Shown: one piece after another, positions 17,109-63,921 of the stretch
How the letters are laid out: each line of letters begins with the position of its first letter
Numbering within the stretch: position 1 is the stretch's first letter
From: Candidatus Poribacteria bacterium
Lineage (GTDB): Bacteria; Poribacteria; WGA-4E; WGA-3G
Length of the DNA: 64,000 nucleotides
Assembly: GCA_965208245.1 (NCBI GenBank)
Contig: OZ242325.1
Coordinates: forward strand, 1,395,699 to 1,459,698
Direction of reading: 5' to 3'
The notes under the pieces: generated by a model
The model's database searches: none
What the model was told of the DNA's origin: nothing
Seen by the model: only the letters and a program-made list of their open reading frames with translations
Position numbers and translations under genes: made by a program

Positions 17109-17246
17109 CAATTTATAGCGAACTTTAGAATTAATGCCAGTTATAATATTAACGTCTTCACAACGGGCGAGGAAACCTCGCCCCTACGAGGGTGATTTTT
17201 GTAAATACGTTAAATGTCTCATTAATTGTTGATTTTACTATAATTG
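17109..17246. repeat. Repeat family A copy 1 (solo), homologous to the region immediately upstream of the IS3-like orfA stub at 49692-49816
   Basis: Shared blocks: caatttatagYgaacttYagaattaatg, the hairpin acaacgggcgagg..acctcgcccctacg, and aaatgtctcattaattRttgaYtttactataattg. Copy 1 carries an extra about 25-bp insert. Confidence 0.8.
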
Positions 17247-17247
17247 G

Positions 17248-18057
17248 CTATTCAATGATACCTTCCATGCGTGCTTGGATCCACGGTTTGTGTTCAGGAT
17301 GTGTGTGAATATAGAAAACACCATTTTGAATTGCGTTGACAACGTGTTCAGCGATTTCAGCCGGCGACAAACCTGCCTGCATTTCGACGTGTGCATTCCG
17401 GATAAAACCCTCTGTTACAGTATTGTGATCTACTTCTGTTTCTGGATTCTGTAATGAATCTGGACGGTTTCGTTCAGTGTTTAAGATTCCTGTTTGCACC
17501 CAACCTGGACATAACACATGTACCTGAATCAGTGAATCGATCTGTGCTAATTCATCAGCGAGGGTTTCAGATAGCGCAACTACGCCGTGTTTACTTACCT
17601 TATATATACCTGGACCTGGACTTCGAATCAGTCCGAGTATTGAAGCAGTGTTTACGATATGACATTCTGTCTTTTGTGACAGCATTTGTGGAACGAAGGT
17701 TCGAATTCCGTGTATGACTCCCCAGAGGTTAACCCCGAGTACCCATTCCCAATCGGCGATCGTATGTTCCCATATCGGACGACTGCAAACCACGCCAGCA
17801 TTGTTGCATAGGATATGGACTGCACCAAATGCCTCAATCGTCAATGCTGCCAGATGTTCAACGTCCTGTGCATTAGACACATCCGTCTTCACAGCAAGGA
17901 CAGTTGCTCCACTTGCTTGTAAATCATCTCTAAGTCTGAATAGGGGTTTTTCCTCAACATCTGCAAGGACAACTGTTATCCCTTCAGCAGCGAAACGTTC
18001 TGCTAATCCTCTGCCTATACCACTCGCTGCGCCTGTAATTACTGCGACTTGTTTCAT
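17248..18057 (-). CDS. Short-chain dehydrogenase/reductase (SDR) family oxidoreductase
   Basis: N-terminal TGAASGIGRG Rossmann motif, NNAG, and YKVSKHG catalytic motif. Confidence 0.9.
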   Translation of the reverse strand: MKQVAVITGAASGIGRGLAERFAAEGITVVLADVEEKPLFRLRDDLQASGATVLAVKTDVSNAQDVEHLAALTIEAFGAVHILCNNAGVVCSRPIWEHTIADWEWVLGVNLWGVIHGIRTFVPQMLSQKTECHIVNTASILGLIRSPGPGIYKVSKHGVVALSETLADELAQIDSLIQVHVLCPGWVQTGILNTERNRPDSLQNPETEVDHNTVTEGFIRNAHVEMQAGLSPAEIAEHVVNAIQNGVFYIHTHPEHKPWIQARMEGIIE

Positions 18058-18103: not shown

Positions 18104-18178
18104 TGTAGGTCGGGTAGAGCGAAGCGAAACCTATAAATCAACGCTATGAATGCCTTATGGCATTCCTGCCTACAGAGT
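18104..18178. repeat. Repeat family B, partial/degenerate copy (one intact 28-bp arm TGTAGGTCGGGTAGAGCGAAGCGAAACC plus a degenerate partner ...cctgcctacag)
   Basis: The arm is identical to the terminal inverted repeats of the full copy at 55774-55897. An internal gaatgccttatggcattc hairpin is present. Confidence 0.7.
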
Positions 18179-18442
18179 ACGTGAATAGTTTTTTGTATAC
18201 TTGACCATAGATTGTAATTATACCACATCCTTGGTTTAGATAGAGTCCCTAATTGCTGATTGCAATACATATATTTCATCTTCATACAGGACTGAGGTCC
18301 ATATTAGACTTGTTTTATCTTCTTAAATGGACGCATAAGGTGTAATTCATAACAATTCATCCCCTAGTCCAAACATCCATTTTCTGTTGAATATATGCCC
18401 ACTTTATGCTATTCTATAAACAGATTTTCCATAGGAGTGAGC

Positions 18443-19096
18443 ATGTTAGAAGAAACAACATTTAGAGAACAGGAGCTCCGAGAACTCTCTAAATATATAC
18501 TGACCCATTTTTCAGATAGAAGTGTGAGATGGTTATTAGAGGACAAAGAGAATGTTCGGGGTCTAATAGAAATCCTTGTGAGTGAGCTAGTAGATTATAT
18601 TGATTTCAGTCACCTTGAACGGCAAAATACTATATTCTTATCAAGCAAACTACAGGAACAAGTATCAGATCTGATTTTCAGTGTGCCTTTCAAGAGTGGT
18701 TCTGAAACAGATGAACTTCTGATATATATTTTGATAGAGCATCAGTCGACGGTAGATGTTTCAATGGGTTTCCGTTTGTTATTTTATATGATGCATATCT
18801 GGGATGCACAACGACAGGAGTGGTTAAGAGATAACGTTCCGAAAAGTGAATGGCGTTTGCGTCCGATAGTACCTATCGTGTTTTACAGTGGTGACCGCCG
18901 GTGGCATGTGCCGTTATCTTTGACAGCGATGATGGATATACCGAAAGAGCTGACCCGATTTGCTCCCAATTTTGATGCCCTCATTCTCAATGTAAAAAAA
19001 ATGGAGACATCGGAATTTACAAAAACGGGTCATCCGTTTGGATGGTTGCTCACGGTCTTACAGAATGAAGACGCGGATAAGGTAGCTGAACAGTAG
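18443..19096 (+). pseudogene. Rpn/YhgA-family (PD-(D/E)XK recombination-promoting nuclease / transposase_31) gene, N-terminal part, separated from its C-terminal part by an IS607-family element
   Basis: LIYILIEHQSTVDVSMGFRLLFYMMHIW and IVPIVFYSGDRRWHVP match conserved Rpn/YhgA blocks. The ORF ends at 19096, just before the IS. Confidence 0.6.
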
Positions 19097-19150: not shown

Positions 19151-19732
19151 ATGACTTATGTATCAACACGTAAAGCAAGCAAGTTGCTGGATTATACACC
19201 TGACCATCTAAGGAGATTAGCAAATGCGGGAAAGATTGACACAATCCGCACGGAGGGCGGACACAGACGTTATGATGTTGATGGATACATCAAAAGCAAA
19301 TCCGATTCAACTCTTGTTACCATTTGCTACTGCAGGGTCTCCAGTGCCAAGCAAAGAGACGATCTTGAACGACAAGTTAACTATATGCGAAGCATCTACC
19401 CCGAAGCAGAAGTTATCCGAGACATCGGAAGCGGTCTCAACTTTAAAAGAAAAGGTCTTAGAACCTTACTGGAACGGCTTATGCAAGGTGATAAGCTCCA
19501 AGTTGTTATTGCCCATCGGGATAGACTCGCCCGGTTCGGTATCGACCTTATACGATATCTCATTGAACAAAACGGTGGCGAACTCGTGGTTTTGGACCAG
19601 ACAGAACACAGTCCGCAAGAAGAGCTCACGGCGGATCTTCTCGCAATCCTGCATGTCTTCAGTTGTAGAATGCATAGACTCCGAAGTTATCGTCAAAAAA
19701 TCAAAGAAGATAAGAGTTTATCCGACAGTTGA
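19151..19732 (+). CDS. tnpA: IS607-type transposase TnpA (MerR-like HTH + serine recombinase catalytic domain)
   Basis: N-terminal HTH (KASKLLDYTPDHLRRLANAGKI). Catalytic serine context VTICYCRVSSAKQRDDLERQ. 193 aa. Confidence 0.8.
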   Translation: MTYVSTRKASKLLDYTPDHLRRLANAGKIDTIRTEGGHRRYDVDGYIKSKSDSTLVTICYCRVSSAKQRDDLERQVNYMRSIYPEAEVIRDIGSGLNFKRKGLRTLLERLMQGDKLQVVIAHRDRLARFGIDLIRYLIEQNGGELVVLDQTEHSPQEELTADLLAILHVFSCRMHRLRSYRQKIKEDKSLSDS

Positions 19733-20810
19733 ACAGCGTGGGATGTTGCGTCAATGGTTCGGGACTGCGCGGTATGTCTATAACAAGACGCTGAATATAC
19801 TCAACACTACGGACACCCAAGCGAACTGGAAAGCAATAAAGACACCTATTTTGAAAGATTTACCTGACTGGGCTAAAGAGACACCTTACCAAGTGAAATC
19901 TGTTGCTATCCGTGATGTCTGCGTTGCTGTTCGCGAAGCAAAGAAGAAGTGTAAAGAAATAGGTGAATATCAATCTGTTTCTTTCAAGTCTAAACGTAAA
20001 CCATCAGATAGTATTTTTATTCCGAAGTCTGCTATATCGGAACGTGGTGTTTACTACACAATGCTTGGTGATCTGAAAATGTCAGAAGCGTTACCTGATA
20101 ACATTGCAGACTCGCGACTGATGAAAGATGGCGATGCATACTATCTGTGCGTATCCTATACTGTGACAACTCAGAAGCGAAAGCCAAACGGAAGCGTTGT
20201 CGCTTTAGACCCTGGCGTGAGAACATTCCTCACCTATTTTCATGAGCATGGGTTCGGATGGCTTGGACACCATGCGATTAATCGTATTCAAAGACTCTGT
20301 GCGAACCTTGACGATCTATTATCCCGTGCTGCGAAAGCAAAACGACCTTCACGCAAGAACCTGAGACGTGCAGCAAACAGGATTAGAGAGCGTATCCAAA
20401 ACCTTGTAGATGAGTTGCACCATAAAGTAGCACGATACCTTGTTGATACCTTTGATATTGTCCTATTACCTACGTTTGAGACTTCAGAAATGACTTGCAA
20501 ATCAGCAAGAAAACTAAACAAGAAGTCTGTCAGACAGATGTTGACACTATCTCACTATAGATTCAAAAAGTTTCTCAAGCATAAAGCAAAAGAAATAGGT
20601 TGCAAAGTTGTTGATGTGTGTGAAGCATACACATCCAAAACTGTGTCTTGGACAGGTGAGATTGTCAATAATTTGGGTGGACGCAAAACAATCAAAGACA
20701 GCACTGGACTCAAGATGGACAGAGACTTGAATGGCGCACGCGGGATATTCCTGCGTGCATTGGTAGATGAACCCTGGTTGCTTGACATAAGCAACTTGCA
20801 AATCGTATAA
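19653..20810 (+). CDS. tnpB: TnpB (OrfB_IS605/RuvC-like) with RuvC D/E/D residues present but no zinc-finger cysteines
   Basis: Start placed at the ATG at 19653 (MSSVVECIDSEVIVKKSKKIRVYPTVEQRGMLRQWFG, the canonical TnpB N-terminus). RuvC-I ALDPGVRTF, RuvC-II LLPTFETSEM, RuvC-III MDRDLNGARGI. The segment between II and III (YTSKTVSWTGEI...KDSTGLK) has V/T/S where the CxxC...CxxC residues normally sit. Confidence 0.75.
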   Translation: MSSVVECIDSEVIVKKSKKIRVYPTVEQRGMLRQWFGTARYVYNKTLNILNTTDTQANWKAIKTPILKDLPDWAKETPYQVKSVAIRDVCVAVREAKKKCKEIGEYQSVSFKSKRKPSDSIFIPKSAISERGVYYTMLGDLKMSEALPDNIADSRLMKDGDAYYLCVSYTVTTQKRKPNGSVVALDPGVRTFLTYFHEHGFGWLGHHAINRIQRLCANLDDLLSRAAKAKRPSRKNLRRAANRIRERIQNLVDELHHKVARYLVDTFDIVLLPTFETSEMTCKSARKLNKKSVRQMLTLSHYRFKKFLKHKAKEIGCKVVDVCEAYTSKTVSWTGEIVNNLGGRKTIKDSTGLKMDRDLNGARGIFLRALVDEPWLLDISNLQIV

Positions 20811-35524: not shown

Positions 35525-35646
35525 GACTTACGCAGTTTCTCTTAAAGTCCCTCTGATAAGGGGAACTTAGGGGGGTAAATCACTAAAATATCATTGAAAT
35601 AACGACTTTTTAACCCTCTTATCAAGAGGGAATGCGTAAGTCATGA
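35525..35646. repeat. Repeat family C copy 1 (about 120 bp MITE-like element; inverted relative to the copy at 54911-55019)
   Basis: About 85% identity to the reverse complement of 54911-55019. Internal near-palindromes CCCTCTGATAAGGGG / CCCTCTTATCAAGAGGG. Confidence 0.8.
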
Positions 35647-44172: not shown

Positions 44173-44886
44173 ATGTCAAACCCTAACAGAAACGTCCTAA
44201 TCATAGGTGGTACAGGCTTCTTAGGAAGTGCCGTGACGAAAACATTTATATCATTGGGTGACACGGTCGCAGCCACATATCTGTTTGACGATGAAGTGGA
44301 AAGATTTAAGCAACACAATCCGGATCTTAGTGATGTCGTTACCTTTCTTTATGCCAATGTCACTGAGGAATCAGTAGTGCAGAAGACCATAGATGCTTGT
44401 ATTGATAAGTTCGGTCATCTTGATATATTGGTAAATATCGTTGGTGGGTTTGTTGGTGGTATTGACACAGTTGAACTTGAGGAAGATAAGTGGGATTTCA
44501 TGATGAACCTTAACCTCAAATCAGTGTTTTTATGTTGCAAAACAGTAATTCCGCACATGAAAGCACAGGGTTATGGCAAAATCGTAAACGTCTCTGCGCG
44601 TGCAGGACTAAAGGGTGAAGCGGGACTGAGTGCTTATTGTGTCTCTAAAGGAGGCGTGCGGACGTTAACAGAGTCATTAGCCGCGGAGGTGATGGATTCG
44701 GGTATCAACGTCAACTGCATAATGCCGAGTATAATGGATACCCCAATGAACCGAGATGCAATGCCTGACGAAGACTATACGCGTTGGGTAAAAACTGATG
44801 ATGTCGCAAAGGTAATCTGTTTTCTGACTTCTGATGAAGCATCTATTATCAATGGTGCTGCGATACCTGTTTATGGTAGGATGTAA
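44173..44886 (+). CDS. SDR-family oxidoreductase
   Basis: GGTGFLG Rossmann motif, NVSARAG, and YCVSK catalytic motif. Confidence 0.85.
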   Translation: MSNPNRNVLIIGGTGFLGSAVTKTFISLGDTVAATYLFDDEVERFKQHNPDLSDVVTFLYANVTEESVVQKTIDACIDKFGHLDILVNIVGGFVGGIDTVELEEDKWDFMMNLNLKSVFLCCKTVIPHMKAQGYGKIVNVSARAGLKGEAGLSAYCVSKGGVRTLTESLAAEVMDSGINVNCIMPSIMDTPMNRDAMPDEDYTRWVKTDDVAKVICFLTSDEASIINGAAIPVYGRM

Positions 44887-44920
44887 TTTATGGTAGGATG
44901 TAATTTATGGTAGGATGTAA
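44870..44920. repeat. Three perfect tandem copies of the 17-mer TTTATGGTAGGATGTAA spanning the SDR stop codon
   Basis: Seen directly. The first copy encodes the last residues YGRM and the stop of the SDR. Confidence 0.9.
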
Positions 44921-47083: not shown

Positions 47084-47122
47084 TTACGGATACCATTCCT
47101 AGTTAATAATACCTTATATTTC

Positions 47123-47217
47123 TGTAGGTCGGGTAGAGGAATGCCATTATAATATTAACTGGCGACATGTATTGATTGGACACATCATATCGGGTTTCGT
47201 ACCTCTACCCGACCTAT
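47123..47217. repeat. Repeat family B copy (short variant; arms TGTAGGTCGGGTAGAGG ... CCTCTACCCGACCTAT)
   Basis: Inverted arms as in the 55774 copy. The interior shares ttataatattaac with the insert in repeat A copy 1. Confidence 0.75.
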
Positions 47218-47251
47218 GAAAGAATGTGACAAGAACAATAGAATTAGTCTG

Positions 47252-48100
47252 ATGCGAAAACTCAAAATTATCCTTGAGATGATAAAGTTTGAACACACGG
47301 TGTTCGCGCTGCCGTTTGCAATTATGAGTGCGTTTATTGCATCGGATGGGCTGCCACCACTACCGAAGTTGGGTTGGATTCTCGTGGCGATGGTTGGCGC
47401 GCGGAGTTGTGCAATGGCGTTCAATCGACTCGCTGATGCAGAAATTGATAGCAAGAACCCAAGGACTTCAACCCGTGCTATTCCAGCAGGTCTAATCACG
47501 AAAGGATCCGTTTGGGTTTTTACGCTCGTTTCTGCTGGCTTGTTGGTATGTGCAGCATGGCGTTTAAATCCGCTTGCATTTGCGTTATCACCTGTCGCAC
47601 TTGCTGTCATAATGGGGTATTCGTTCACGAAACGGTTCACAGCACTTTCACATTTGTGGTTAGGACTTGCGCTCTCTATATCACCTATTGGTGCATGGAT
47701 CGCCATCACTGGCAGATTTGATTGGACACCGATAGTTCTCTGCTGTGTTGTGTTGCTATGGACAGCAGGTTTTGACATTATATATGCATGCCAAGATGTG
47801 AACTTTGACAGAAGACATGGACTGCATTCCATTCCTGCGCGGATAGGTATACGTTGGGCTCTATGGATTTCTGCTGCGTTGCATGTCGTTGCAGTTATCC
47901 TTCTATTTATCATTCCGCTCCTTGCGGAATTAGGACTATTTTATTTTATCGGTGTAGGGATTGTTGTTCTGATATTTATCTATGAGCATACCATTGTGAA
48001 ACCGAATGACCTTTCACGCGTCAATTTGGCATTTTTCACCCTTAACGGTATGATTAGTCTGGTCTTAATGGCACTTTCTATCACTGATATTCTATTGTAA
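47252..48100 (+). CDS. UbiA-family aromatic prenyltransferase (4-hydroxybenzoate polyprenyltransferase-like / MqnP-like)
   Basis: Start MRKLKIILEMIKFEHTVFALPFA. The Asp-rich motif region NRLADAEIDSKNPRT and a second DxxxD-like block are present. Eight or nine TM helices. Confidence 0.8.
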   Translation: MRKLKIILEMIKFEHTVFALPFAIMSAFIASDGLPPLPKLGWILVAMVGARSCAMAFNRLADAEIDSKNPRTSTRAIPAGLITKGSVWVFTLVSAGLLVCAAWRLNPLAFALSPVALAVIMGYSFTKRFTALSHLWLGLALSISPIGAWIAITGRFDWTPIVLCCVVLLWTAGFDIIYACQDVNFDRRHGLHSIPARIGIRWALWISAALHVVAVILLFIIPLLAELGLFYFIGVGIVVLIFIYEHTIVKPNDLSRVNLAFFTLNGMISLVLMALSITDILL

Positions 48101-49621: not shown

Positions 49622-49691
49622 GTTTATTAATACTGTACTGCCATCGAAAATTAGGACCACTATCTAAACCAAGATTGTGGTATTATAATAA

Positions 49692-49816
49692 CAATTTATA
49701 GTGAACTTCAGAATTAATGAAACACGCCACAACGGGCGAGGTGACCTCGCCCCTACGCTGGATGGTTTTCGTAAATGGTGAAAATGTCTCATTAATTATT
49801 GACTTTACTATAATTG
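49692..49816. repeat. Repeat family A copy 2, directly upstream of the IS3-like orfA stub (likely an IS left-end region)
   Basis: Homologous to 17109-17246. It ends about 10 bp before the orfA RBS. Confidence 0.8.
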
Positions 49817-53179: not shown

Positions 53180-53216
53180 GGTGAATTTTGAAAATAATAA
53201 CCTCTTCACCCCGGTA

Positions 53217-53245
53217 GGTGCGATTTCCTAATCGCACCGGTTTTG
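53217..53245 (+). terminator. Rho-independent terminator candidate (GGTGCGATT-tcct-AATCGCACC followed by GGTTTTG)
   Basis: 9-bp perfect stem, 4-nt loop, and a T-run about 35 bp after the stop at 53179. Confidence 0.55.
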
Positions 53246-54083: not shown

Positions 54084-54228
54084 TTAACTAAACCCAAGTT
54101 GCTACCTACAAGATTTAGACATGGAAACGCCATCTATTTAGCAATATTGTAGTGTCCACTGTCAGTTTTGCCCTCACAGGCACAATCTGCCAGATTGTGC
54201 TACATAGGTGGCAACTTGGGTTAACTAA
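54084..54228. repeat. About 145-bp structured element bounded by 23-25-bp inverted repeats (TTAACTAAACCCAAGTTGCTACCT / AGGTGGCAACTTGGGTTAACTAA) with an internal 10-bp-stem palindrome GCACAATCTG-c-CAGATTGTGC
   Basis: Seen directly: MITE-like or structured RNA. Confidence 0.5.
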
Positions 54229-54910: not shown

Positions 54911-55019
54911 GCATTCCCTTTGATAAGGGGTTAGGAAGGTTAAAAAGTCGTTATTTCAATGCTATTTTAGTGATTTAACCCTTAAAGTCCCCTTATCAGT
55001 GGGACTTTATAAGAGAAAC
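54911..55019. repeat. Repeat family C copy 2 (MITE-like), abutting the start of the DUF1080-like paralog 2
   Basis: Reverse-complement match to 35525-35646. The called GTG start at 54999 lies inside the element, and the real ATG at 55041 lies just outside it. Confidence 0.8.
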
Positions 55020-55739: not shown

Positions 55740-55773
55740 CGACATCTAACTTGTAGAATGCCTTCTCTTACAT

Positions 55774-55897
55774 TGTAGGTCGGGTAGAGCGAAGCGAAAC
55801 CCGACTTTTCTATATTGTGAGAGATTACGTATCCAAAACAACGCCAAATGTGCGTTTGGGCATTTGGCGGGTTTCGCTTCGCTCTACCCGACCTACA
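55774..55897. repeat. Repeat family B full copy: 124-bp MITE-like element with perfect 30-bp terminal inverted repeats TGTAGGTCGGGTAGAGCGAAGCGAAACCCG and an internal hairpin (ACGCCAAATG...CATTTGGCG)
   Basis: Seen directly. It sits between convergent genes, and the stop codon of the minus-strand gene (55893-55895) lies inside the right TIR. Confidence 0.85.
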
Positions 55898-56642
55898 AGA
55901 CAGCACTTGACAAAGCACTATCACTACAAATAGCACCAGCACGTAAAACCTCATAATAAGGCAAACACTCAGATAGGACATCTTCCAATTCTATAGGAAA
56001 AGGTTCGCTTTTCGGTTTATACGGCACAAACCCGACACTACGATGCACGTTCTCATACCAATGCGGAGCCCACACGCCATCCGAAGAATGTCCATCACGC
56101 TTCCAAGATAGCATCTCTTCCTCAAAAGGTATATCCAACTGAGAACAGAGGATTGACAAAACATGCTTTGGATCTAGCAACAATTCCTTTGCATCTAAGA
56201 TAGGTGGTATTTGTCCAATCTGCTGTAATTCAGTCAATAGTTCAGCCTGAATCTTCAAACCCGTATCCTTCAAGGTAGGAATCCCAATCACTTTCGTTAA
56301 TGAAGGGAGCATCTCTTTCGGATCACGAATAAGCAAAATATTCACTGTCTTCTGCATGAATGTTCTGTCAATATTGACAAGGTGATGTGCCATCTGTTTC
56401 ATAAAAAGGATAGGCTTAGTACACTCACCTAAAACAACTTCACGAATCACTGCCTTCATATCTGTTTCCATTGAGGCAATAACCGCATCTCGACCAGGAT
56501 GCATTACCCCTGTAGTATGTAAATAGTGTGCATAGAACGGTTCATCAACAACTCCTGTATCGCTCCGTTGTGCAAAAGCATACATCAGAGCGGTTGAAAT
56601 ATTGCGGGGTCCTGACCATAGACACACTCTTTTCGTTTGCAT
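55893..56642 (-). CDS. Sulfotransferase-family protein (putative)
   Basis: PAPS-binding-like 5'PSB motif LWSGPRNISTAL and 3'PB-like LLIRDPKEM. 249 aa. Confidence 0.5.
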   Translation of the reverse strand: MQTKRVCLWSGPRNISTALMYAFAQRSDTGVVDEPFYAHYLHTTGVMHPGRDAVIASMETDMKAVIREVVLGECTKPILFMKQMAHHLVNIDRTFMQKTVNILLIRDPKEMLPSLTKVIGIPTLKDTGLKIQAELLTELQQIGQIPPILDAKELLLDPKHVLSILCSQLDIPFEEEMLSWKRDGHSSDGVWAPHWYENVHRSVGFVPYKPKSEPFPIELEDVLSECLPYYEVLRAGAICSDSALSSAVL

Positions 56643-57263: not shown

Positions 57264-57859
57264 ATCAACTCCTTCTCAAGTGTTTCAGCAGAAATCACAC
57301 CGTTTCTGTGAACAATAGGAGGTGATATAGATATATCGTAAACTGTTGATGGTATAGAGTTTAATGTCTTTCCATCATCAACAATGTAATCTAATTGAGA
57401 ACTGAGTTCTTGTCTAAATTCCGACGGTGAGGTGGCTGCTGGTGTGCCTGAAAGATTAGCACTAGTGATTGCAAGTGGACCTCCAAATTCTTGGAGTATG
57501 CGCAATAATAAAGGCTGATTAGGAATTCGTAAACCTACAGTGTTACCACCAGCTGTCAGGTCAGGTAGCAGGTTTTTTGCCTCTACGATGATTGTTAATC
57601 CACCTGGCCAAAACCTATTTGTAAGGTGATAAAAGAATCCGGTCAGGTTCTGTGCTACCATTTGGACATCCTCTGTTGAACCTAAGACTAAGGGGATAGG
57701 TTTCTCGTCTGGTCGTCCCTTTAACGTGTATAGTTTTTGCACCGCCTCCAGATTAAATGGATCAGCACCTATACCATACACTGTATCCGTTGGAACAGCA
57801 ATAATTCCACCAGACTTTATACAGTTAACTGCTGTTTCAATACGTTTATCAGATGCCAT
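57233..57859 (-). CDS. tsaC: L-threonylcarbamoyladenylate synthase (TsaC/YrdC family)
   Basis: YrdC signature TDTVYGIGADPFNLEAVQKLYTLKGRP. 208 aa. Confidence 0.85.
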   Translation of the reverse strand: MASDKRIETAVNCIKSGGIIAVPTDTVYGIGADPFNLEAVQKLYTLKGRPDEKPIPLVLGSTEDVQMVAQNLTGFFYHLTNRFWPGGLTIIVEAKNLLPDLTAGGNTVGLRIPNQPLLLRILQEFGGPLAITSANLSGTPAATSPSEFRQELSSQLDYIVDDGKTLNSIPSTVYDISISPPIVHRNGVISAETLEKELICYNRHLKNS

Positions 57860-57886
57860 GTATGTTGCTCCTGTCTGCTAAGATAT

Positions 57887-58912
57887 TTATCTGGCATCAA
57901 CTATTGATCCGTTTGCGGCAGCGTTGAGTGAGAGTTCATCACGGTGTCCTTGCTGATACTTCACATAAGCGATTCCTGCGATCATTGCGCCGTTATCCGT
58001 ACATAAACTAAAGGGTGGATAATGGATTTCCGCGTCAATTTCTTGTGCAGCTTGCTTTAGAGATGACCTTAGTTTACTGTTTGCTGCAACCCCACCGGTC
58101 AACGTTATCGTGTGGCAACCCGTAGTTTTTGCGGCTTGAACGGTCTTTGTTACAAGCACATCAACAACTGCTGCTTGGAAACTTGCAGCAATGTCTTCAA
58201 TGGTAATTTCTCCGCTTTCTATTGTTCCCGCGCGTTCTGCCTTTTCCACAAAATATCGCACCGAGGTTTTAACTCCGCTAAAACTGAATTGATGATCACC
58301 GCTGCGGAGCATTGGGCGCGGAAAGTCAATAGCTGTCGGATTACCTTTCTGTGCAAGGTCATCTATGATTTTGCCACCTGGAAAACCGAGTCCTAGATAC
58401 TTTGCAACTTTATCATAGACTTCACCTGCTGCATCGTCTTGTGTTGTACCGAGTACCTTATATTTCCATCCTTCATGAACTTCTACCAGCAAGGTGTGTC
58501 CACCAGATACGGTCAAACAGATGTGGGGAAAAGTTAAGTTCTCGTGCACCATGTAATTGGCGTAGATATGTCCTTCAATGTGATTGATACCAAGTAAAGG
58601 AAGATTGTGGGAGTATGCAAGGCTTTTGGCTGCTGCCACGCCAATCAGTAAAGCACCAATCAAACCTGGACGATTTGTCACAGCAACAGCATCTATATCC
58701 TCAAAAGTAGTGTCAGCTTCAACGAGTGCTCTGCTGACGATATAGTTAATTGCTTCTATGTGTTTGCGGGATGCTAATTCTGGCACAACACCCCCGTATT
58801 CTTCATGTGCTTTTATCTGTGATGCAACGATGTTTGATTGCACATCACGACCATTAACTACAATAGCTGCAGATGTTTCATCACAAGAGGTATCTATACC
58901 GAGTATCTTCAC
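57887..58912 (-). CDS. tsaD: tRNA N6-adenosine threonylcarbamoyltransferase TsaD (Kae1/YgjD family)
   Basis: MKILGIDTSCDETSAAIV start, HIEGHI metal-binding motif, 341 aa. Confidence 0.9.
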   Translation of the reverse strand: MKILGIDTSCDETSAAIVVNGRDVQSNIVASQIKAHEEYGGVVPELASRKHIEAINYIVSRALVEADTTFEDIDAVAVTNRPGLIGALLIGVAAAKSLAYSHNLPLLGINHIEGHIYANYMVHENLTFPHICLTVSGGHTLLVEVHEGWKYKVLGTTQDDAAGEVYDKVAKYLGLGFPGGKIIDDLAQKGNPTAIDFPRPMLRSGDHQFSFSGVKTSVRYFVEKAERAGTIESGEITIEDIAASFQAAVVDVLVTKTVQAAKTTGCHTITLTGGVAANSKLRSSLKQAAQEIDAEIHYPPFSLCTDNGAMIAGIAYVKYQQGHRDELSLNAAANGSIVDAR

Positions 58913-59008
58913 AAGGTTATCATTTTATTCGGATAATCTGGATAATTCAAGAGTTGATGGGATGAACATATCACACATCCATCCCATGTATTATACGTAA
59001 CTTATACG

Positions 59009-60739
59009 TTATTCTTGAAGCGAATTGCTATCTACAGATTGGTTTTCCCTTCTTTCTTTTATCATGCCTGCAAGGACACATCCCCCCATACCTAATAGGA
59101 CAAGTGCGAAAGGGAAACCTGTTGCAAGTGATGCGGCTTGTAAAGCCCTCAACCCTCCTCCGAGTAGCAGTGCTATAGCAACTAAACCTTCAGCAGTGCA
59201 CCAGAAAACCCGTTGTGCAACCGGAGCATCAATCTTGCCACCAGCCGCTATTATATCAACGATGAGCGAACCGGAATCTGAAGAGGTAACAAAAAAGATG
59301 ATTGTTAGCAGCATTGCAACACAGGAAAGGAGCATCGTCATCGGAAGTTCTTTAAACATCTCAAACAGAGCCATTTCAGGTACATACGCCTCAACAACTT
59401 CTGTTACACTAGCATAACCATTAGATAGGAACTGATGGATGGCGGTTCCGCCAAATGCGCTAAACCACAAAAGACACAGAATCGTCGGCAATATAAGTAC
59501 AAAGAAGACAAATTGACGCACAGTACGCCCTTTTGATATCCTTGCAATGAATGTACCGATGAACGGTGCCCAAGCGATCCACCATGCCCAGTAAAAGGTC
59601 GTCCAACCGTGTAAAAAACCTGTATCTTCACGACCTATCCAATTGCTCAGTGGAACAATCTCCCTGACATAAGTCACCAATCCAGAGAACATACTTTGAA
59701 AGATGTAACGCGTTGGTCCGAGAATGAAAATAGTTATGAGCAGAACAAACGCGAGAATTATGTTAAACTGACTCAAACGTTTGATTCCAACATTGATACC
59801 GGTCATCACTGATATAAGAGCGATAGCGGTAATCCCTACAATTAACAAAATCATAGTCAGATTATTTGCTGGTATGTTAAATAGAGCATTAAGACCAGAA
59901 GTTACTTGCTTAGCACCTAAGCCAAGTGAAGTCGCCAATCCGAAGATACCAGCAAATATTGCAAATGTATCAATGATGTGTCCTGGCCAACCCCATATAC
60001 GTTCCCCGAATATAGGATAGAAAGCGGAGCGGATAAGCATCGGAAAACCTCGGTTATATGCAAAGAATGCCAGTGCAAGGCCTACAATGCCGTAGACACC
60101 CCATCCGTGTAATCCCCAGTGAAAGACTGTTGCAGCAATACCTAAAGAAGCTGCTCTTTTAACTGTACTGTCTTCTATGTCAGGAACACTTTTATCGTTG
60201 TAAAATTTCTTGGTGCCGAATCCTTTATCCGCATCTTCGATCTGTAACGCATCTCCTGTCTGAACATCAATTTCGGTGAAAATTGCGTTCTTATCATATA
60301 CCGTTTCAACGCCGAGTGGGGGATCCTGATAGTATGTGACCGGTTCTAACACACCAAAAAATAGCAGACCGATCCCAACACCTGCAGCAAAAAGCATCGC
60401 TAACCAAGTTAAATAGGAATACTCAGGTTTTGCATCAGCACCGCCAAGTCGAATTTTGCCAAGTGGTGAAATAGCGACAATCAAACAAAAGAGAACCACG
60501 AGATTAGCAGTACTCATAAATAGCCAATCAAGGTTGGTAGTAAGCCAGGTTCGCACACTTCCGAATAGTTTTGTCGCTTGGTTTTGAAAAATAAGTGAAC
60601 CAACTATAAATAAAATAATAGTGATACCGGATATCACGAATACGGGGGTTAGGTAAATGTCTAAACCGAATAATTTCTTATACCTACCTTCATCTACCTG
60701 ATGCGGCATCTGTAGCGTTTGTTTTTCTTCTTCGTGCAT
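59009..60739 (-). CDS. BCCT-family (betaine/carnitine/choline) transporter
   Basis: BCCT signature WTTFYWAWWIAWAPFIGTFIARIS. 12-TM topology. 576 aa. Confidence 0.85.
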   Translation of the reverse strand: MHEEEKQTLQMPHQVDEGRYKKLFGLDIYLTPVFVISGITIILFIVGSLIFQNQATKLFGSVRTWLTTNLDWLFMSTANLVVLFCLIVAISPLGKIRLGGADAKPEYSYLTWLAMLFAAGVGIGLLFFGVLEPVTYYQDPPLGVETVYDKNAIFTEIDVQTGDALQIEDADKGFGTKKFYNDKSVPDIEDSTVKRAASLGIAATVFHWGLHGWGVYGIVGLALAFFAYNRGFPMLIRSAFYPIFGERIWGWPGHIIDTFAIFAGIFGLATSLGLGAKQVTSGLNALFNIPANNLTMILLIVGITAIALISVMTGINVGIKRLSQFNIILAFVLLITIFILGPTRYIFQSMFSGLVTYVREIVPLSNWIGREDTGFLHGWTTFYWAWWIAWAPFIGTFIARISKGRTVRQFVFFVLILPTILCLLWFSAFGGTAIHQFLSNGYASVTEVVEAYVPEMALFEMFKELPMTMLLSCVAMLLTIIFFVTSSDSGSLIVDIIAAGGKIDAPVAQRVFWCTAEGLVAIALLLGGGLRALQAASLATGFPFALVLLGMGGCVLAGMIKERRENQSVDSNSLQE

Positions 60740-60807
60740 TTTGGATTCTCCTTTTTTAGAGTAGTAGTCTACACAAGGTCAAACTACATGACAAGGGCGT
60801 GAACCAA

Positions 60808-62202
60808 TTAGAAATAAACACCGAAGTTAAAATTAAGTCGCCAATTCCAAACGTTATTGCCGTTTGCACCAACATCACCTGCACCATCGTAAATATTCCC
60901 GTAACCTTCTCTGATTCCATCACCTGCACTGTTACCTACAAAGGAATTACCATTAGATAAACCGAGGTCGCTATAGACATACAGTGAATCAAAGATGTTC
61001 CAATTTATCCCAAGTGTTACAAGGGTACTTGGATTGTAAGTATCAACAGTTTTGAGAATAGTACTCCATTCTATGTATGGCATTACACTGTTTAGCCATG
61101 AAATACTTTCTGTGTTAATTCCACCATAACGCAGGGAAAGGGCAGGTATTAACCCTTCAGACGCAACAGGCCATGCAAATTCGTAAGCACCCATCGGAAT
61201 CAAGTCCCCTGTTCCCCAAGCTGTATCCTCTGTAATATTGTGCGCATAATAGGTAAACTGTGAATAGAGCGTGAAATCTGCTGCTGAGTTCTTCATGTGC
61301 GCGGAAAGAGCGAAGTGATTTCCGCTTTCATCGTCTCCTACATTCGTTCCTTGCAACAAACCGAATTGTGCTGAGACTCCTATATCAGCAACGTTTTCAA
61401 TGGAATAGATTGCACGAAGATTAAATTGATGTAGCTCATCAAACCCATTCTCCTCAACACCCCATTGCACATTTCCATCTTTATCTGCTTGCTCTTCCCA
61501 TTTTACAACATCGTATCCGTATCGCGCACTATTGAGACTATTTCCTAGCGTCTGAGGTTCACTCATCAGGAAATAGCCTACATCATAAGTTAGGTTACTA
61601 GTGTTGTTATTCCATACAATTCCCAGATCAGGGTCATCAGCGAGTCCGACATAAAAATGCTGGTCAAAAAACCAACTGTTAGAAACACCGTAGTCTGTTG
61701 GTCCAAAAGGCACTCGTACAATGCCTGCTTTGAGCGTCCCCGTATCCTTGAAATCGTAACCTAACCATGCAGTATGTATCATGCTGTACCCTATTGAATT
61801 GCCAAAATACCTCGGATACCATCGATATTCCAGCTTGCCAATGACGTTATGAAAGTCAAGGTTGACATTCAGTCGTAGTAATTCAAGATCAACATCGCCA
61901 AAGTTTGCCCCTCTACCGTCATCCTCCAAATACGGTTGACCGGAACTATCATATCGCGTCCGATCTTCATACGTACCGTAGACGTAGTTGGCTCGCATTG
62001 CACCACCGATTTTTATAGGACTTTTCTTTGGTTCAACTTCTGCGCTGTTTTCTGCAGTCGTATCAGCCACTGCAAATGGTAACGCTATCAAGAAAAAGGC
62101 AGTACAGAATGTTAGTAAAGGTTGGAACTTACTATTTTTTGTACAAAGCCATTGTATTAAACTATTGTTCTGTAACACGATTACCTCCTTAGAAACATAC
62201 AC
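60808..62202 (-). CDS. Putative outer-membrane beta-barrel/porin-like protein
   Basis: N-terminal signal region. Alternating amphipathic strands rich in Tyr/Gly/Asn. C-terminal aromatic terminus ...NFNFGVYF typical of OMP beta-barrels. The start is uncertain. Confidence 0.55.
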   Translation of the reverse strand: MYVSKEVIVLQNNSLIQWLCTKNSKFQPLLTFCTAFFLIALPFAVADTTAENSAEVEPKKSPIKIGGAMRANYVYGTYEDRTRYDSSGQPYLEDDGRGANFGDVDLELLRLNVNLDFHNVIGKLEYRWYPRYFGNSIGYSMIHTAWLGYDFKDTGTLKAGIVRVPFGPTDYGVSNSWFFDQHFYVGLADDPDLGIVWNNNTSNLTYDVGYFLMSEPQTLGNSLNSARYGYDVVKWEEQADKDGNVQWGVEENGFDELHQFNLRAIYSIENVADIGVSAQFGLLQGTNVGDDESGNHFALSAHMKNSAADFTLYSQFTYYAHNITEDTAWGTGDLIPMGAYEFAWPVASEGLIPALSLRYGGINTESISWLNSVMPYIEWSTILKTVDTYNPSTLVTLGINWNIFDSLYVYSDLGLSNGNSFVGNSAGDGIREGYGNIYDGAGDVGANGNNVWNWRLNFNFGVYF

Positions 62203-62478
62203 TCATTAGGTCATTAATACTCATTTTAGTGGGGATTAACAGGAAAAACAGCAGAAGTGCCCCCACCTTCTGAACACAACTGCAAGCAAACAAGTTATGT
62301 ATATAGTAAAACTTGAATTGTATGAAACATATATTTTGTAGTACAATCTGTTAGATTGTGTCTGCTGAGCCTATTGTCCAATGTTTCATTAATTCTAAAA
62401 TTCACTATAATACCACAGGTTGTAATTTAATGTCTAAAAAGAAACGCCTACAATTTCTTTTAGACGAGTCCGTAATGC

Positions 62479-63921
62479 TTATTGTATCTGTCCCATTGCA
62501 CTAAACATCATAAATGTTTGCACTAATTGTTTGTAATCACCTACTGAAATGAGGAGTTTTGCACCGACACCACCGTCCCGTACTTTTGCTGACATACCGA
62601 TATTGTAGTTTTCAGGGATCCCCATGATCATGCCAGCTATCATCTGTATTTCAGCGGCAGCGTTTGGATCAACTTTTGATGCCAGAGAAACGAAACTTTT
62701 AATGGCTGCTATAGGAGAAATTCCAAATAATAGATTATTATCTTTTCCTAACTTTTCAACAAGATTCTGATAACCTACATTTTCAGATATACTCTCAACA
62801 ACTTTAGTTTTGCTATTAAGTGCACTCTGTATGACTTCTGCTCCCCCAAAAGCAAAATAGAGTTGTTCATCAGAAAATGCATAAGACCAATGCCATTCAT
62901 GAGGTATCAGAACAGCAATCTCAGCAATCTCTATAGGGATATCCTGAAAAGCAACACCAAAATTGGGGAAGACAATTGTCTTGATCTCTACCTCGTTATG
63001 CATAATTGGGTTTCCAGCATACACCCCATCGAAAATAGAGAGTTGTGGAACTTCTCCCATTGTCTCTTCCATAATTTGTATCATTGTGTTCAGGTTGTCC
63101 AAGTAACGCTCATCATAGTATGTTTTGACTTTCTCTTCATCTTCAAGATCATAAATGACCAAAACATCAGGAATTAAACTATCTCTAAAATTCACGGAGA
63201 AACCTTGTTCTTTACCCAATGCTTTGTACATCTCTTGCATCTCTTGCATGATTTTTTTGAGGTCCTGACTCCATTCTTCGTTTTCTGAAGGAAGAGCTAA
63301 CAACGAAGACATGCTCCATTCATATAAACGCGACGCATCTCCTTCAACCCCCCCGAACATGAATCCTCCATTGGGTAAATCATTCATAATTGCTAATTCA
63401 TCAGGCATCAGTTCTTTTAGGGTGTCTTGTATCTTCCCTTCGTCTTTAAACTTCAGAAAAGGGGAAAGTTGTACATCAGTACCTTCTATCTGAAGTGTTG
63501 CATTTACGGATTCTAAATTGCTAATTAGTTCAGCAAATGTCCTAATCACACTTTCTATCATTGGAACTGAAGACATGAAATCGAGAAAACTTTCCGCATC
63601 ATTAATTTCGGCATTCATGTCTTCCATAATCGTTTCAATATACGGTGCAATAATTGTCTCAAGATCAAAATACACAGCAAGTTGATCAGTTCCCTTTGCG
63701 ACCTGATTTAAAAATACGGTGTAATTAGGATTAGCAGCGATTGCATTTTGGTCGCCCTTACTCACATCAATGATGCTCACACAATCTTTAGCATGTTGTG
63801 AGAAGACAAGGGTATTTCCCAAAATAGCAAAACTCCCATCACCTTCAGACCTAAGGTAGGTTTCACCCTTATATTTGATGGGTTCGCTGCCTTGTGCTTC
63901 TGTTTCAATAACCTGCATCAT
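62479..63921 (-). CDS. Hypothetical protein (periplasmic/unknown; possibly DUF3352-like), probably 5'-extended beyond the window
   Basis: 480-aa ORF. The reading frame stays open upstream of the called Met to position 64000 (…AIFFTSFDPVAVAATVHLTDPEAMMQ), so the true start may lie outside the window. Confidence 0.5.
   Translation of the reverse strand: MMQVIETEAQGSEPIKYKGETYLRSEGDGSFAILGNTLVFSQHAKDCVSIIDVSKGDQNAIAANPNYTVFLNQVAKGTDQLAVYFDLETIIAPYIETIMEDMNAEINDAESFLDFMSSVPMIESVIRTFAELISNLESVNATLQIEGTDVQLSPFLKFKDEGKIQDTLKELMPDELAIMNDLPNGGFMFGGVEGDASRLYEWSMSSLLALPSENEEWSQDLKKIMQEMQEMYKALGKEQGFSVNFRDSLIPDVLVIYDLEDEEKVKTYYDERYLDNLNTMIQIMEETMGEVPQLSIFDGVYAGNPIMHNEVEIKTIVFPNFGVAFQDIPIEIAEIAVLIPHEWHWSYAFSDEQLYFAFGGAEVIQSALNSKTKVVESISENVGYQNLVEKLGKDNNLLFGISPIAAIKSFVSLASKVDPNAAAEIQMIAGMIMGIPENYNIGMSAKVRDGGVGAKLLISVGDYKQLVQTFMMFSAMGQIQ

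Follow-up and report, generated by a model that had tools for sequence, protein, structure and literature searches.

Inverted doublets of GTAG-tagged REP sequences in Candidatus Poribacteria: a probable REPIN/BIME-type family

The hairpin element at positions 55774-55897 of the window, by which we mean the whole 64-kb stretch of Candidatus Poribacteria DNA that was analyzed, is probably a unit of the REPIN/BIME type: two inverted REP sequences with GTAG facing outward, a nested 35-nt hairpin, and flank modules typical of its family. We favor this reading because of the anatomy of the element, the covariation in the REP stem, the abundance of the family in Poribacteria, the presence or absence of the insertion at orthologous sites, and the flanking of RAYT genes by the same REP elsewhere. 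Both the family to which this REP sequence belongs and its RAYT have been described before in cyanobacteria, and what is added here is the extension to Poribacteria.

As a REPIN family, the copies would be non-autonomous and would be mobilized in trans by a RAYT (TnpA-REP), an HUH/Y1 enzyme related to the TnpA of IS200/IS605. The RAYT would bind the folded single-stranded REP, read the GTAG 5' of the stem, cleave beside it, and carry out strand transfer, and copies spread in this manner would lack target-site duplications. Such an enzyme presumably mobilized the copies in the Poribacteria lineage.

Anatomy of the doublet and its copies in the window

The initial annotation had described a near-perfect 124-bp hairpin with perfect 30-bp terminal inverted repeats and an inner hairpin, and both hairpins were confirmed. 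The outer arms (55773-55803 and 55868-55898) were 31 nt each, 100% complementary, and 64 nt apart. The 141-nt region folded into one long hairpin of -77.9 kcal/mol (dinucleotide shuffles, -34.4 +/- 3.5; z = -12.4), and the inner hairpin CGCCAAATG...CATTTGGCG gave a DNA fold of -11.6 kcal/mol (z = -3.7). A single arm also folded by itself as DNA (-7.3 kcal/mol), with GTAG followed by a 7-bp stem and an inner GC(GAA)GC pair. Its layout, GTAG-G-TCGGGT, a loop bearing GCGAAGC, and ACCCGA, is that of a GTAG-tagged REP hairpin (GTAGGTCGGGTAGAGCGAAGCGAAACCCGAC). A REP is a palindrome of 20-50 nt, often imperfect, that folds as a stem-loop directly 3' of GTAG. The arm folds in this way, with a covarying stem position (see below), and GTAG lies directly 5' of the palindrome at 55775 (+), 55896 (-), 18105, and 47124, with ATAG at 47217. 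The main element consists of the left REP, a 27-nt spacer, the nested 35-nt mini-hairpin, and the right REP (Table 1). This doublet of 122 nt has the organization of a REPIN, in which two inverted REPs and a short spacer are predicted to form one hairpin. A flank resembling the left module (..CCTACATT) borders doublets at the non-orthologous loci L099 and L054 (L numbers are our designations for the genomes and loci compared), and the right module also adjoins doublets in L093, L063, and L099.

A search with the 16-mer head TGTAGGTCGGGTAGAG, allowing three or fewer mismatches, gave five matches in the 64-kb window (18104+, 47123+, 47203-, 55774+, and 55882-), whereas shuffled sequences averaged 0.25 and none of 100 reached five. 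Relaxed searches added no further copies in the window. The five REP units lie at three sites, all between ORFs, in agreement with the annotated number of copies, their intergenic position, and the shorter or degenerate state of the other two. The copy at 47124-47217 retains both arms, the left one a recurrent sub-family variant and the right one with GTAG changed to ATAG. The annotation had placed one copy at the start of the ubiA-like gene. This applies to the longest UbiA ORF: the mutated terminus of the REP, CCTAT (followed by G), overlaps its putative start codon, the ATG at 47216. The copy at 18105-18173 comprises one REP, a mini-hairpin variant, and a second REP reduced to CCTAC. A block like ttataatattaac was found at 17138-17152 and 47144-47158 and in seven Poribacteria loci. 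The interior blocks are shared, as had been noted, and the proposal of a small, non-autonomous, mosaic REP-like element is supported.

Table 1. Coordinates of the REP units, spacers, nested hairpins, and flank modules in the window
Feature	Position	Strand	Description	Basis
Third copy, REP	18105..18131	+	Decayed copy; ends early after GAAACC	Sequence, pattern search
Third copy, mini-hairpin variant	18132..18165	-	TATAAATCAACGCTATGAATGCCTTATGGCATTC, GAATGCC-stem type	90-97% matches in L112, L127, L084, L095, L014
Third copy, REP remnant	18169..18173	-	CCTAC, the GTAGG head of the second REP; rest deleted	Sequence, fold
Second doublet, class-1 flank module	47090..47123		GGATACCATTCCTAGTTAATAATACCTTATATTTC, related to the Poribacteria motif TAATACCATTTCTAA...CATTATTTC found before many doublets	Flank comparison
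Second doublet, left REP (variant)	47124..47163	+	Head GTAGGTCGGGTAGAG intact; stem AAACC replaced by CATTATAATATTAAC-TGG block	Same replacement in 7 Poribacteria loci
Second doublet, spacer	47164..47190		GACATGTATTGATTGGACACATCATAT, common ACATGTATTGATTGTG..ATCATGT type	Comparison with L114, L037, L120
Second doublet, right REP	47191..47217	-	Loop GTAC; GTAG changed to ATAG; ...CCTATG overlaps ATG of longest UbiA ORF	Sequence, ORF list
Main element, left flank module	55741..55774		...GTAGAATGCCTTCTCTTACATT, missing at empty orthologous sites	L133/L136 homology ends at 55740
Main element, left REP	55775..55805	+	GTAG, G, 7-bp stem GTCGGGT/ACCCGAC, loop AGAGCGAAGCGAA including GCGAAGC mini-hairpin	Sequence, fold, family pattern
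Main element, spacer	55806..55832		TTTTCTATATTGTGAGAGATTACGTAT, TTTTTATAGTG... spacer sub-family	Comparable spacers in L119, L020, L045, L061
Main element, nested mini-hairpin	55833..55867	-	35 nt; minus-strand reading CCAAATGCCCAAACGCACATTTGG + CGTTGTTTTGG, directly after right-REP stem CCCG	Fold; Poribacteria doublets
Main element, right REP (iREP)	55868..55896	-	Inverted; GTAG provides TAG stop of sulfotransferase ORF	Sequence, arm match, fold
Main element, right flank module	55897..55921		AAGACAGCACTTGACAAAGCAC, class 3, missing at empty sites	L133 homology resumes at 55922

The mini-hairpin occupied the same position in many of the listed Poribacteria doublets and also followed CCCG in other host repeats. 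At least three different host repeats carry it. Among 22 parsable copies, 15 followed CCCG and three followed GGCG, and 17 were 34 nt long. The stem covaried (CAAATGCC, CGAATACC, GGAATGCC, and CAGCATGCC), and the tail CGTTGATTTGG was conserved. We tentatively propose, with slightly less than even confidence, that this 34- to 35-nt hairpin (55833-55867; variant, 18132-18165) is an independent, ultra-small mobile element that inserts into other hairpin repeats, at a precise point following CCCG in their stems. Its targets may include this REP, in either orientation, as well as two or more further types of repeat. No TnpA for the mini-hairpin was found, and the TnpB ORF in the window (19224-20810) has no Y1 partner.

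Dispersal of the family, orthologous sites, and RAYT genes

We scanned genomes with the pattern GTAGGTCGGGTAGAG-N2-8-GAAACCCG. At least 117 genome loci matched, mostly in Candidatus Poribacteria MAGs, with at least 20 on a single 4.8-Mb Poribacteria contig, and a second scan gave at least 120 metagenome loci. With so many loci in other genomes, a local duplication was rejected in favor of the dispersed family that had been suspected. The listed loci and the window together held 201 REP units: 52 GTAG-outward doublets, three tail-to-tail pairs, two tandem pairs, and 90 singlets. The singlet-to-doublet ratio, which is approximate since the sample was chosen by REP matches, was 1.7, below the value of 2 used as a criterion for REPINs (Bertels & Rainey 2011, PMC3116915). 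The spacer mode of these doublets was 26-29 nt, and many doublets were near-identical among the listed Poribacteria loci. No Rfam family was matched at gathering thresholds anywhere in the window. The literature searched did not mention REPs, REPINs, or MITEs in connection with Poribacteria, and a full-text search with the REP sequence strings gave no match.

By design of the search, GTAG was present in all 201 units, and up to two substitutions were permitted in the 15-nt head. At the stem pair where the pattern left both positions free, T..A was found 151 times, C..G 12 times, T..G four times, and C..A twice. A pyrimidine preceded GTAG in 191 of the 201 units. The compensatory covariation points to selection acting on the hairpin and not on a binding site in duplex DNA, which argues against reading the arms as the terminal inverted repeats of a MITE. 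The same holds for the arms themselves, which are self-complementary GTAG-tagged hairpins that also occur singly (the 90 singlets among the listed loci). Furthermore, when the 52 listed doublets were examined for target-site duplications at offsets of 0-2 and lengths of 3-9, the duplications that the MITE reading had called for were not detected, with just three matches at chance level.

The window is syntenic with L041 at 80-86% identity, and the orthologues carry Poribacteria names. Beside the main copy, the sulfotransferase-like ORF on the minus strand ends at a TAG (55893-55895) that forms part of the right-arm GTAG, so the element does supply its stop codon, as annotated. In three assemblies from two related Poribacteria lineages (L133, L134, and L136), the corresponding gap was 27 nt, as against 181 nt in the window. 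The filled site was common to the window and to L137 and L138, which represent one other lineage and are short-read (Logan) contigs that both end inside the REP. Sulfotransferases of the lineages polymorphic for the insertion were 86-92% identical to that of the window. The site is therefore filled in some lineages and empty in others, as expected of a mobile REPIN, and the differing block measures 181 nt, more than the doublet with its 122 nt. Protein alignment gave a sulfotransferase of 249 aa in the window compared with 242 aa in the orthologues, and the additional residues at the C terminus, ALSSAVL, are encoded by the minus strand of the right flank module. The insertion gave the sulfotransferase seven more residues and its stop codon. 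Because the 181-nt block exceeds the doublet and the flank modules recur at non-orthologous loci, the unit that moved may have been a composite of larger size; alternatively, the doublet may have inserted into a target that is itself repeated. The sole effects at this site would be incidental, namely, the seven-residue extension, the new stop, and a very stable hairpin located at the 3' ends of two convergent transcripts. Strings of GAAGGTTGGGTTGAT in L133, L134, and L136 and at window position 55647 are coding sequence and were rejected as REPs.

RAYT genes flanked on both sides by the identical REP variant were found in other bacteria (L259, L260, L261, L254, L172, and L241). The RAYT ORFs in L172, L241, L254, and L252 had a REP(+) upstream and a REP(-) downstream. 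Those in L259, L260, and L261 were likewise bracketed, by REPs that match the variant of the window exactly (GTAGGTCGGGTAGAG..GAAACCCG), one lying ~40 nt ahead of the ATG and the other ~10 nt past the stop codon. Against the NCBIfam model for REP-associated tyrosine transposases (NF047646, cutoff 80), the L172 protein, of 180 aa, scored 197 bits and the L241 protein 193 bits, and the L172 RAYT (P0241) was 45% identical to E. coli RayT. A RAYT was present in 10 of the 120 listed metagenome REP loci. All of these REP-RAYT (REPtron) loci came from other phyla, in genomes of ~52% GC. Among the matches listed, the RAYT, a Y1/HUH protein, was the sole gene between such arms, again contrary to the MITE reading, for which a parent IS with these termini and a DDE transposase would be expected; none was found among them. 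By contrast, neither the 64-kb window nor ~100 Poribacteria 8-kb loci (~0.9 Mb) contained a RAYT gene or remnant in searches with phmmer, jackhmmer, and two profile HMMs, and no Poribacteria-named protein was among the best 120 homologues of either RAYT query. Among the listed genome loci, phmmer with E. coli RayT and jackhmmer with the L047 protein matched L047 alone, and this RAYT was set aside as proof of the association since the REPs at its borders are mainly of another type, GTAGGGGCGGGTTT... In L025 and L068, the ORFs enclosed by neighboring REPs proved to be ordinary genes and were rejected as RAYTs. A scan of viral contigs with an alignment of two RAYT sequences yielded no relative that could be confirmed.

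Relic, structural, and MITE explanations

An unlikely alternative, though the strongest of those considered, is that the window copies are immobile fossils of a relic population, spread by a RAYT that the Poribacteria have since lost or now copied solely in a passive manner, by recombination or replication slippage. It would account for the failure to find a RAYT in ~0.9 Mb of REP-rich Poribacteria DNA when 10 of the 120 listed metagenome REP loci contain one, for the decay of two of the three window copies, and for the numerous singlets and disrupted REPs. However, the 31-nt arms of the main copy are perfect, near-identical doublets are common among the listed loci, and the insertion is polymorphic between lineages with closely similar sulfotransferases. 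A RAYT is normally present in a single copy per genome, so ~100 random REP loci would be expected to miss it. We prefer the REPIN reading with past mobilization by a RAYT, although the copies may be relics that are inactive in this lineage today.

It is considerably less probable that the element is primarily a structure selected by the host at gene ends, such as a bidirectional terminator, a stabilizer of mRNA 3' ends, or a site for nucleoid proteins or gyrase. The main copy is flanked by convergent ORFs, overlaps the last codon and stop of the sulfotransferase, and would form an RNA hairpin of -78 kcal/mol. TTTTCT follows the left REP on the plus strand, and E. coli REPs are credited with such roles in the introductions of two papers (PMC8266576 and PMC3733652). 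However, the complete hairpin is followed by a T-run on neither strand, so the pattern of an intrinsic terminator is not seen; the left REP alone has its TTTTCT, but with an atypical 13-nt loop. Apart from the inner mini-hairpin, a terminator scan reported nothing but weak sites, and the element had no Rfam match. Because the orthologous site is empty in relatives, with its 27-nt gap, the element is dispensable there. The three window copies lie in different contexts (convergent gene ends, the inside of a ubiX-ubiA pair, and a divergent promoter region), and the contexts of doublets in the listed Poribacteria loci (30 tandem, five divergent, and one convergent) resemble the background, so a preferred placement between convergent genes was rejected. 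The annotated role as a terminator or attenuator is consequently not supported, and the REPIN reading is retained.

The classical IS-derived MITE of the initial annotation, in which the arms are terminal inverted repeats bound as double-stranded DNA by the DDE transposase of a parent IS that duplicates its target site, is very improbable and already largely refuted: its perfect arms (31 nt rather than 30) stand, the element is small and present or absent at an orthologous site, and other, genuine MITE-like repeats, with the motifs TAATACCATTTCTAA or ATAGGTGTCAACTTAAG at their termini, occur in the same genomes, yet the self-folding REPs, the singlets, the association with RAYT, and above all the lack of target-site duplications led us to reject it.

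Implications and comparison with known systems

For annotation, the assignment would recast an apparent MITE, terminal repeats included, as a REP doublet, and it widens the host range of this REP-RAYT family to Poribacteria, a phylum of sponge symbionts. Such insertions can rewrite gene ends, as in the seven added residues and new stop of the sulfotransferase and, possibly, a false UbiA start. REPs also break short-read assemblies, given that both Logan contigs with the filled site end within one. The layered nesting of flank modules, REP doublet, and mini-hairpin makes these Poribacteria genomes useful for studying the targeting of one tiny hairpin element by another, and it opens no new class of system. 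If the mini-hairpin proposal is true, REP hairpins would be the sites at which a further and still smaller parasite lands, and its insertions would give rise to the mosaic repeats between Poribacteria genes. Small dispersed repeats (SDR) of Nostoc were reportedly described by Elhai et al. in 2008. Compared by description with these and with the palindrome-associated mini-elements derived from IS200/IS605, the mini-hairpin is likewise tiny and hairpin-forming, with a fixed short target and no obvious duplication, whereas its length and sequence differ and no transposase or parent IS was found.

The closest counterpart of the REP itself is gttgggttgaggaacgaaacccaac, which flanks the RAYT npun_F5543 of Nostoc punctiforme PCC 73102 (Bertels & Rainey 2011, Table S2, PMC3116915). 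It is essentially the same sequence as GTCGGGTAGAGCGAAGCGAAACCCGAC of the window, with the same stem register and GAG...GAAACCC frame, and like our family in other genomes, it is associated with a RAYT and organized in REPINs (PMC3116915). The two differ in a stem pair, T:A in Nostoc and C:G in the window, which is a compensatory change, and in the loop, GAAC versus CGAAGC. The host of the former is a cyanobacterium with 13 occurrences of the 16-mer (PMC3116915), in contrast to the dense loci of Poribacteria.

The family also resembles the E. coli REP/BIME system with RayT (YafM, TnpA-REP group 2), in which the palindrome is likewise long and imperfect, contains an irregular zone, and has GTAG on its 5' side, and a REP and an inverted REP are joined by a linker in a mosaic organization with other conserved motifs. 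The 45% identity noted above links E. coli RayT to a RAYT flanked by this REP family. The E. coli REP sequence, however, is unrelated to that of the window, which contains no long tandem BIME arrays, and the Poribacteria doublet is mainly a homodimer with its GTAG ends outward.

In REPINs of P. fluorescens SBW25 (Bertels & Rainey 2011), an inverted doublet also forms one long hairpin with no target-site duplication, doublets exceed expectation (here, a ratio of 1.7, below 2), and singlets resemble decayed doublets. The SBW25 REPs are short, near-perfect palindromes with group 3 RAYTs, whereas the REP described here is long, with a structured loop of 13 nt and a group-2-like RAYT. Finally, according to Di Nocera et al. 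(2013, PMC3733652), GTAG-15 sequences are cyanobacterial GTAG-tagged REPs with loops of 9-15 nt that occur mostly as dimers, and these dimers are often inserted within longer palindromic sequences. The window REP sequence had no match in the supplements of that paper; judged by description, the GTAG-15 dimers inside longer palindromes parallel the flank modules that surround the doublet in Poribacteria.

Anatomy of the hairpin and its copies in the window

The element at 55774-55897 has two 31-nt arms (55773-55803 and 55868-55898) that are 100% complementary and separated by 64 nt. The region was predicted to fold into one long hairpin of -77.9 kcal/mol, against -34.4 ± 3.5 kcal/mol for dinucleotide shuffles (z = -12.4), which agrees with the near-perfect hairpin described in the initial annotation. 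A single arm consists of GTAG, G, and a 7-bp stem (GTCGGGT/ACCCGAC) enclosing the 13-nt loop AGAGCGAAGCGAA; as single-stranded DNA, its predicted fold was exactly this stem-loop with an inner GC(GAA)GC pair (-7.3 kcal/mol). Because the GTAG head and the stem-loop match the published definition of GTAG-tagged repetitive extragenic palindromes (REPs; PMC3733652 and PMC8266576), each arm is such a REP. An inverted REP pair with GTAG ends outward has been called a "head-to-head dimer" (Di Nocera, PMC3733652) or a REPIN (Bertels & Rainey 2011). The element is a REPIN/BIME-type REP doublet, and the 124-bp copy is a basic doublet with a nested insertion, the mini-hairpin (see table). This label replaces that of a MITE with 30-bp terminal inverted repeats, since the arms are REP hairpins and no target-site duplication was evident among 52 doublets.

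The 16-mer TGTAGGTCGGGTAGAG occurred five times in the window (18104+, 47123+, 47203- with 2 mismatches, 55774+, and 55882-; shuffle mean, 0.25). These sites cluster at 18.1, 47.1, and 55.8 kb, and relaxed searches of the window added no further copies of this type, leaving the three copies originally counted. The main copy is pristine, and the other two are decayed. The 47.1-kb copy is a doublet with the common ACATGTATTGATTG spacer type, in which the GTAG of the right REP is mutated to ATAG and a CATTATAATATTAAC-TGG block stands in the left REP in place of the AAACC part of the stem. As the same replacement was found in seven Poribacteria loci, the left REP represents a sub-family, not random damage. 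The 18.1-kb copy is a decayed doublet that retains one REP truncated after GAAACC, and a mini-hairpin variant (GAATGCC stem); just a CCTAC remnant is left of the second REP.

Two gene overlaps noticed earlier were also found: the TAG stop codon of the sulfotransferase-family ORF falls inside the right arm and derives from GTAG, and the end of the 47.1-kb copy overlaps the initial ATG (47216) of the longest UbiA ORF. Together, the REP end and its class-2 module supply the first ~12 codons of this ORF (MKECDKNNRISL...), and translation may in fact begin at the downstream Met (MRKLKIILEM...).

Features of the main element, its copies, and other repeats and genes in the window
Feature	Position	Strand	Remarks
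Left REP	55775-55805		Part of basic doublet
Spacer	55806-55832		Between left REP and mini-hairpin
Mini-hairpin	55833-55867		35 nt, nested insertion
Right REP	55868-55896		Inverted relative to left REP; right flank of this copy, class 3
47.1-kb copy	47124-47217		Left flank, class 1; right flank, class 2
18.1-kb copy	18105-18173		Left flank, class 2
Sulfotransferase-family ORF	55893-56642	minus	Pfam Sulfotransfer_5
Start of longest UbiA ORF	47216-47260		REP end and class-2 module
Other GTAG-tagged perfect hairpins	17165-17187	minus	
	49734-49756	minus	
	53214-53237	plus	
	54181-54203	minus	
	62338-62359	plus	
Composite repeat	17113-17246		17159-17246 aligns with 49728-49816, ~82-93% identity, direct orientation
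	18212-18269		Inverted relative to 49634-49691
	49634-49816		
	62369-62410		
Short-chain dehydrogenase gene	17248-18057		
Rpn/YhgA-like (Transposase_31) ORF	18395-19096	plus	
TnpB-like ORF	19224-20810	plus	
Dispersed inverted pair	35538-35621 / 54932-55014		~61-84 nt, 83-87% complementary, 19 kb apart
17-mer array	44870-44920		Three perfect tandem copies of TTTATGGTAGGATGTAA

Two further repeats were observed in the window. One is the dispersed inverted pair, whose right member lies just upstream of an ORF at 54999. The other is the 17-mer array, which starts at the last 17 nt of an ORF (44173-44886) and continues downstream.

Flank modules, the nested mini-hairpin, and empty sites

The sequences adjacent to the doublets in Poribacteria are themselves conserved modules, which makes the organization mosaic. 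Three flank classes were distinguished: class 1, with TAATACCATTTCTAA..CATTATTTC before GTAGG and AGTTTATTTATGACAATTTGTCAATTAGAAATGGTATTA after CCTAC; class 2, with GTGGATAGTCCAGACTAAATAT and AAGTTTAACTTGGACAGTCCAC at the same places; and class 3, with AAAATAGCACTTGACAAAGCAC after CCTAC. The suggestion of mosaic small elements is thus upheld, with doublet, mini-hairpin, and flank modules combined. A composite repeat, probably "family A" of the initial annotation, was also observed; it includes a GTAGGGGCGAGG REP and a TTATAATATTAAC block, and its parts lie on either side of the short-chain dehydrogenase gene and are adjacent at 49.6 kb.

The mini-hairpin, reported at first as an inner hairpin, was found at the same doublet position in many Poribacteria loci (e.g., L020, L027, L038, L040, L045, L055, L057, L061, and L100) and twice in locus L085. 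It was also present inside unrelated hairpin repeats, always immediately 3' of a CCCG, for example between GAAACCCG and ACATG, CTCTACCCG and ACCTAC, or CAGTCCCG and TAGGGAC. Of the 22 copies whose 7-nt arms are perfect, 15 come after CCCG and 3 after GGCG, and a length of 34 nt is shared by 17; the stem shows compensatory variation, and the tail CGTTGATTTGG is conserved. We infer that the mini-hairpin may be an element in its own right, smaller still than the REP that harbors it and specific in its target; the 34-nt unit would target CCCG and use REP stems as landing pads. Separately, a MITE-like element was observed within a window-family REP at L037 (6870-7118), L052 (1189-1486), L053, L059, and L128. 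Its terminal repeats are ATAGGTGT(A/C)AACTTAAG, and 21-22 bp of the REP core, GGGTTTCGCT(TC/CA)CGCTCTACCC, are duplicated on its two sides; this duplication is unusually long and coincides with the hairpin.

The 55.8-kb site is empty in two related Poribacteria lineages represented by three assemblies (L133, L134, and L136), in which 20-27 nt separate the sulfotransferase gene (242 aa) from the convergent gene. Homology with the window ends at 55740 and restarts at 55922, leaving 181 nt in the window versus 27 nt there. The window sulfotransferase is 249 aa long, with an extra ALSSAVL from the class-3 flank module. The same filled site was found in a third lineage (protein P0001, 90% identical; contigs L137 and L138), and both short-read contigs break off within the REP, the usual outcome for a high-copy repeat. 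At a non-orthologous locus (L099), a composite is bordered by similar flanks left and right, and therefore the arriving unit may have been ~180 nt rather than a bare doublet.

Distribution of the REP family and its transposase

The window belongs to a relative of Candidatus Poribacteria: the closest named homologues of the window sulfotransferase are from Poribacteria, and a 5.9-Mb Poribacteria contig (L041) is syntenic with 57417-63518 at 80-86% identity. When one genome per species was scanned for the pattern GTAGGTCGGGTAGAG-N2-8-GAAACCCG, at least 117 loci matched. Among the matches listed, the great majority were from Poribacteria MAGs and a few from Desulfobacteraceae, Nitrospirota, Hyphomicrobiaceae, Marinobacter, and a cyanobacterium; at least 20 are on a single 4.8-Mb contig. 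With looser constraints, the pattern GTAGGTYGGGTWGAG...GAAACCCR was detected in 13 viral-collection contigs and at least 120 metagenome loci. In the listed genome loci and the window, 201 REP units were counted, arranged as 52 GTAG-outward doublets, 3 tail-to-tail pairs, 2 tandem pairs, and 90 singlets. The singlet:doublet ratio of 1.7 is below the threshold of 2 for "mostly doublets" (Bertels & Rainey 2011). The basic doublet is ~83-87 bp with a 26-29-nt spacer, and a pyrimidine precedes GTAG in 191 of the 201 units. The free stem pair in the scan pattern covaries (T..A, 151; C..G, 12; T..G, 4; C..A, 2), which demonstrates selection on the hairpin. GTAG-plus-hairpin sites numbered 7 in the window versus 0.9 in shuffles, so the genome carries several REP families. 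The other GTAG-tagged perfect hairpins differ in sequence (GTAGGGGCGAGG.., GTAGGTGCGATT.., GTAGCACAATCTG.., GTAGTACAATCTG...).

No gene for a REP-associated tyrosine transposase (RAYT) was found in the window or in the ~100 listed Poribacteria loci, and a RAYT-like ORF was present in 10 of the 120 listed metagenome REP loci. At L172, L241, L254, and L252, the RAYT-like ORF has a REP(+) just upstream and a REP(-) just downstream, with GTAG ends outward. Against a cutoff of 80 bits, NCBIfam NF047646 (an equivalog for REP-associated tyrosine transposase) matched the L172 protein with 197 bits and the L241 protein with 193; the former (P0241) shares 45% identity with E. coli RayT. Among the matches listed, it belongs to a conserved clade of 180-aa proteins that are 62-82% identical to the L172 query. 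Those from Desulfobulbia and Brasilonema are annotated as REP-associated tyrosine transposase, and those from Crocosphaera, Anaerolineae, and Brocadiaceae simply as "transposase." Two clade members were examined on long contigs (L259 and L260; L261), where REPs of exactly the window variant, GTAGGTCGGGTAGAG-loop-GAAACCCG, bracket the gene: one is ~40 nt ahead of the start codon and the other ~10 nt past the stop codon. Many members (P0241-P0360) sit on contigs of ~0.6-2 kb, consistent with assemblies breaking at the flanking REPs.

Other transposase-like genes were also observed. A RAYT-like gene of a different clade in a Nitrospirota MAG (L047, 4900-5950) is bordered by GTAGGGGCGGGTTT(C/T)AAACCCGCCC-type REPs, one of which lies inside the coding sequence (translated ...VGAGSLVRAGFKPAPT...); a window-type REP follows 120 nt downstream. 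In the window, the TnpB-like ORF (HTH_OrfB_IS605, OrfB_IS605, and Cas12f1-like TNB domains; ~155 unexplained N-terminal residues) lies directly 3' of the Rpn/YhgA-like ORF, with no Y1 TnpA nearby.

Proposed mechanism and relation to known systems

RAYT (TnpA-REP) is an HUH/Y1 enzyme related to IS200/IS605 TnpA that recognizes a folded single-stranded REP with a 5' GTAG, cleaves beside it, and performs strand transfer; group 2 RAYTs, such as that of E. coli, depend on a long REP stem that includes an irregular zone (PMC8266576). In the window REP, the GTAG is accompanied by a 7-bp stem with a 13-nt interior that is itself structured, and the enzyme flanking the identical REP elsewhere is group-2-like. 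We propose that a RAYT-type enzyme acting in trans on single-stranded DNA spread the window copies, the replicative unit probably being the doublet, possibly with flank modules.

The earlier idea of a terminator or attenuator found no support: the full hairpin lacks a T-run after it on both strands, relatives have an empty site, and the intergenic contexts of doublets at Poribacteria loci (30 tandem, 5 divergent, and 1 convergent) resemble the background (341, 64, and 61). A putative stabilizing effect on transcript 3' ends is possible.

The combination of doublets and flank modules resembles the mosaic E. coli BIMEs and the cyanobacterial GTAG-15 dimers "inserted within long palindromic sequences" (Di Nocera et al., PMC3733652). 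The REP flanking the Nostoc punctiforme RAYT npun_F5543, gttgggttgaggaacgaaacccaac (Bertels & Rainey 2011, Table S2; PMC3116915), is a T:A variant of the window REP. Since this REP is published and RAYT genes are flanked by the family elsewhere, both REP family and enzyme were already known; the expansion in Poribacteria was not described in the literature searched. The window copies thus add a new host phylum and a compensatory stem variant to a known, published REP-RAYT family.
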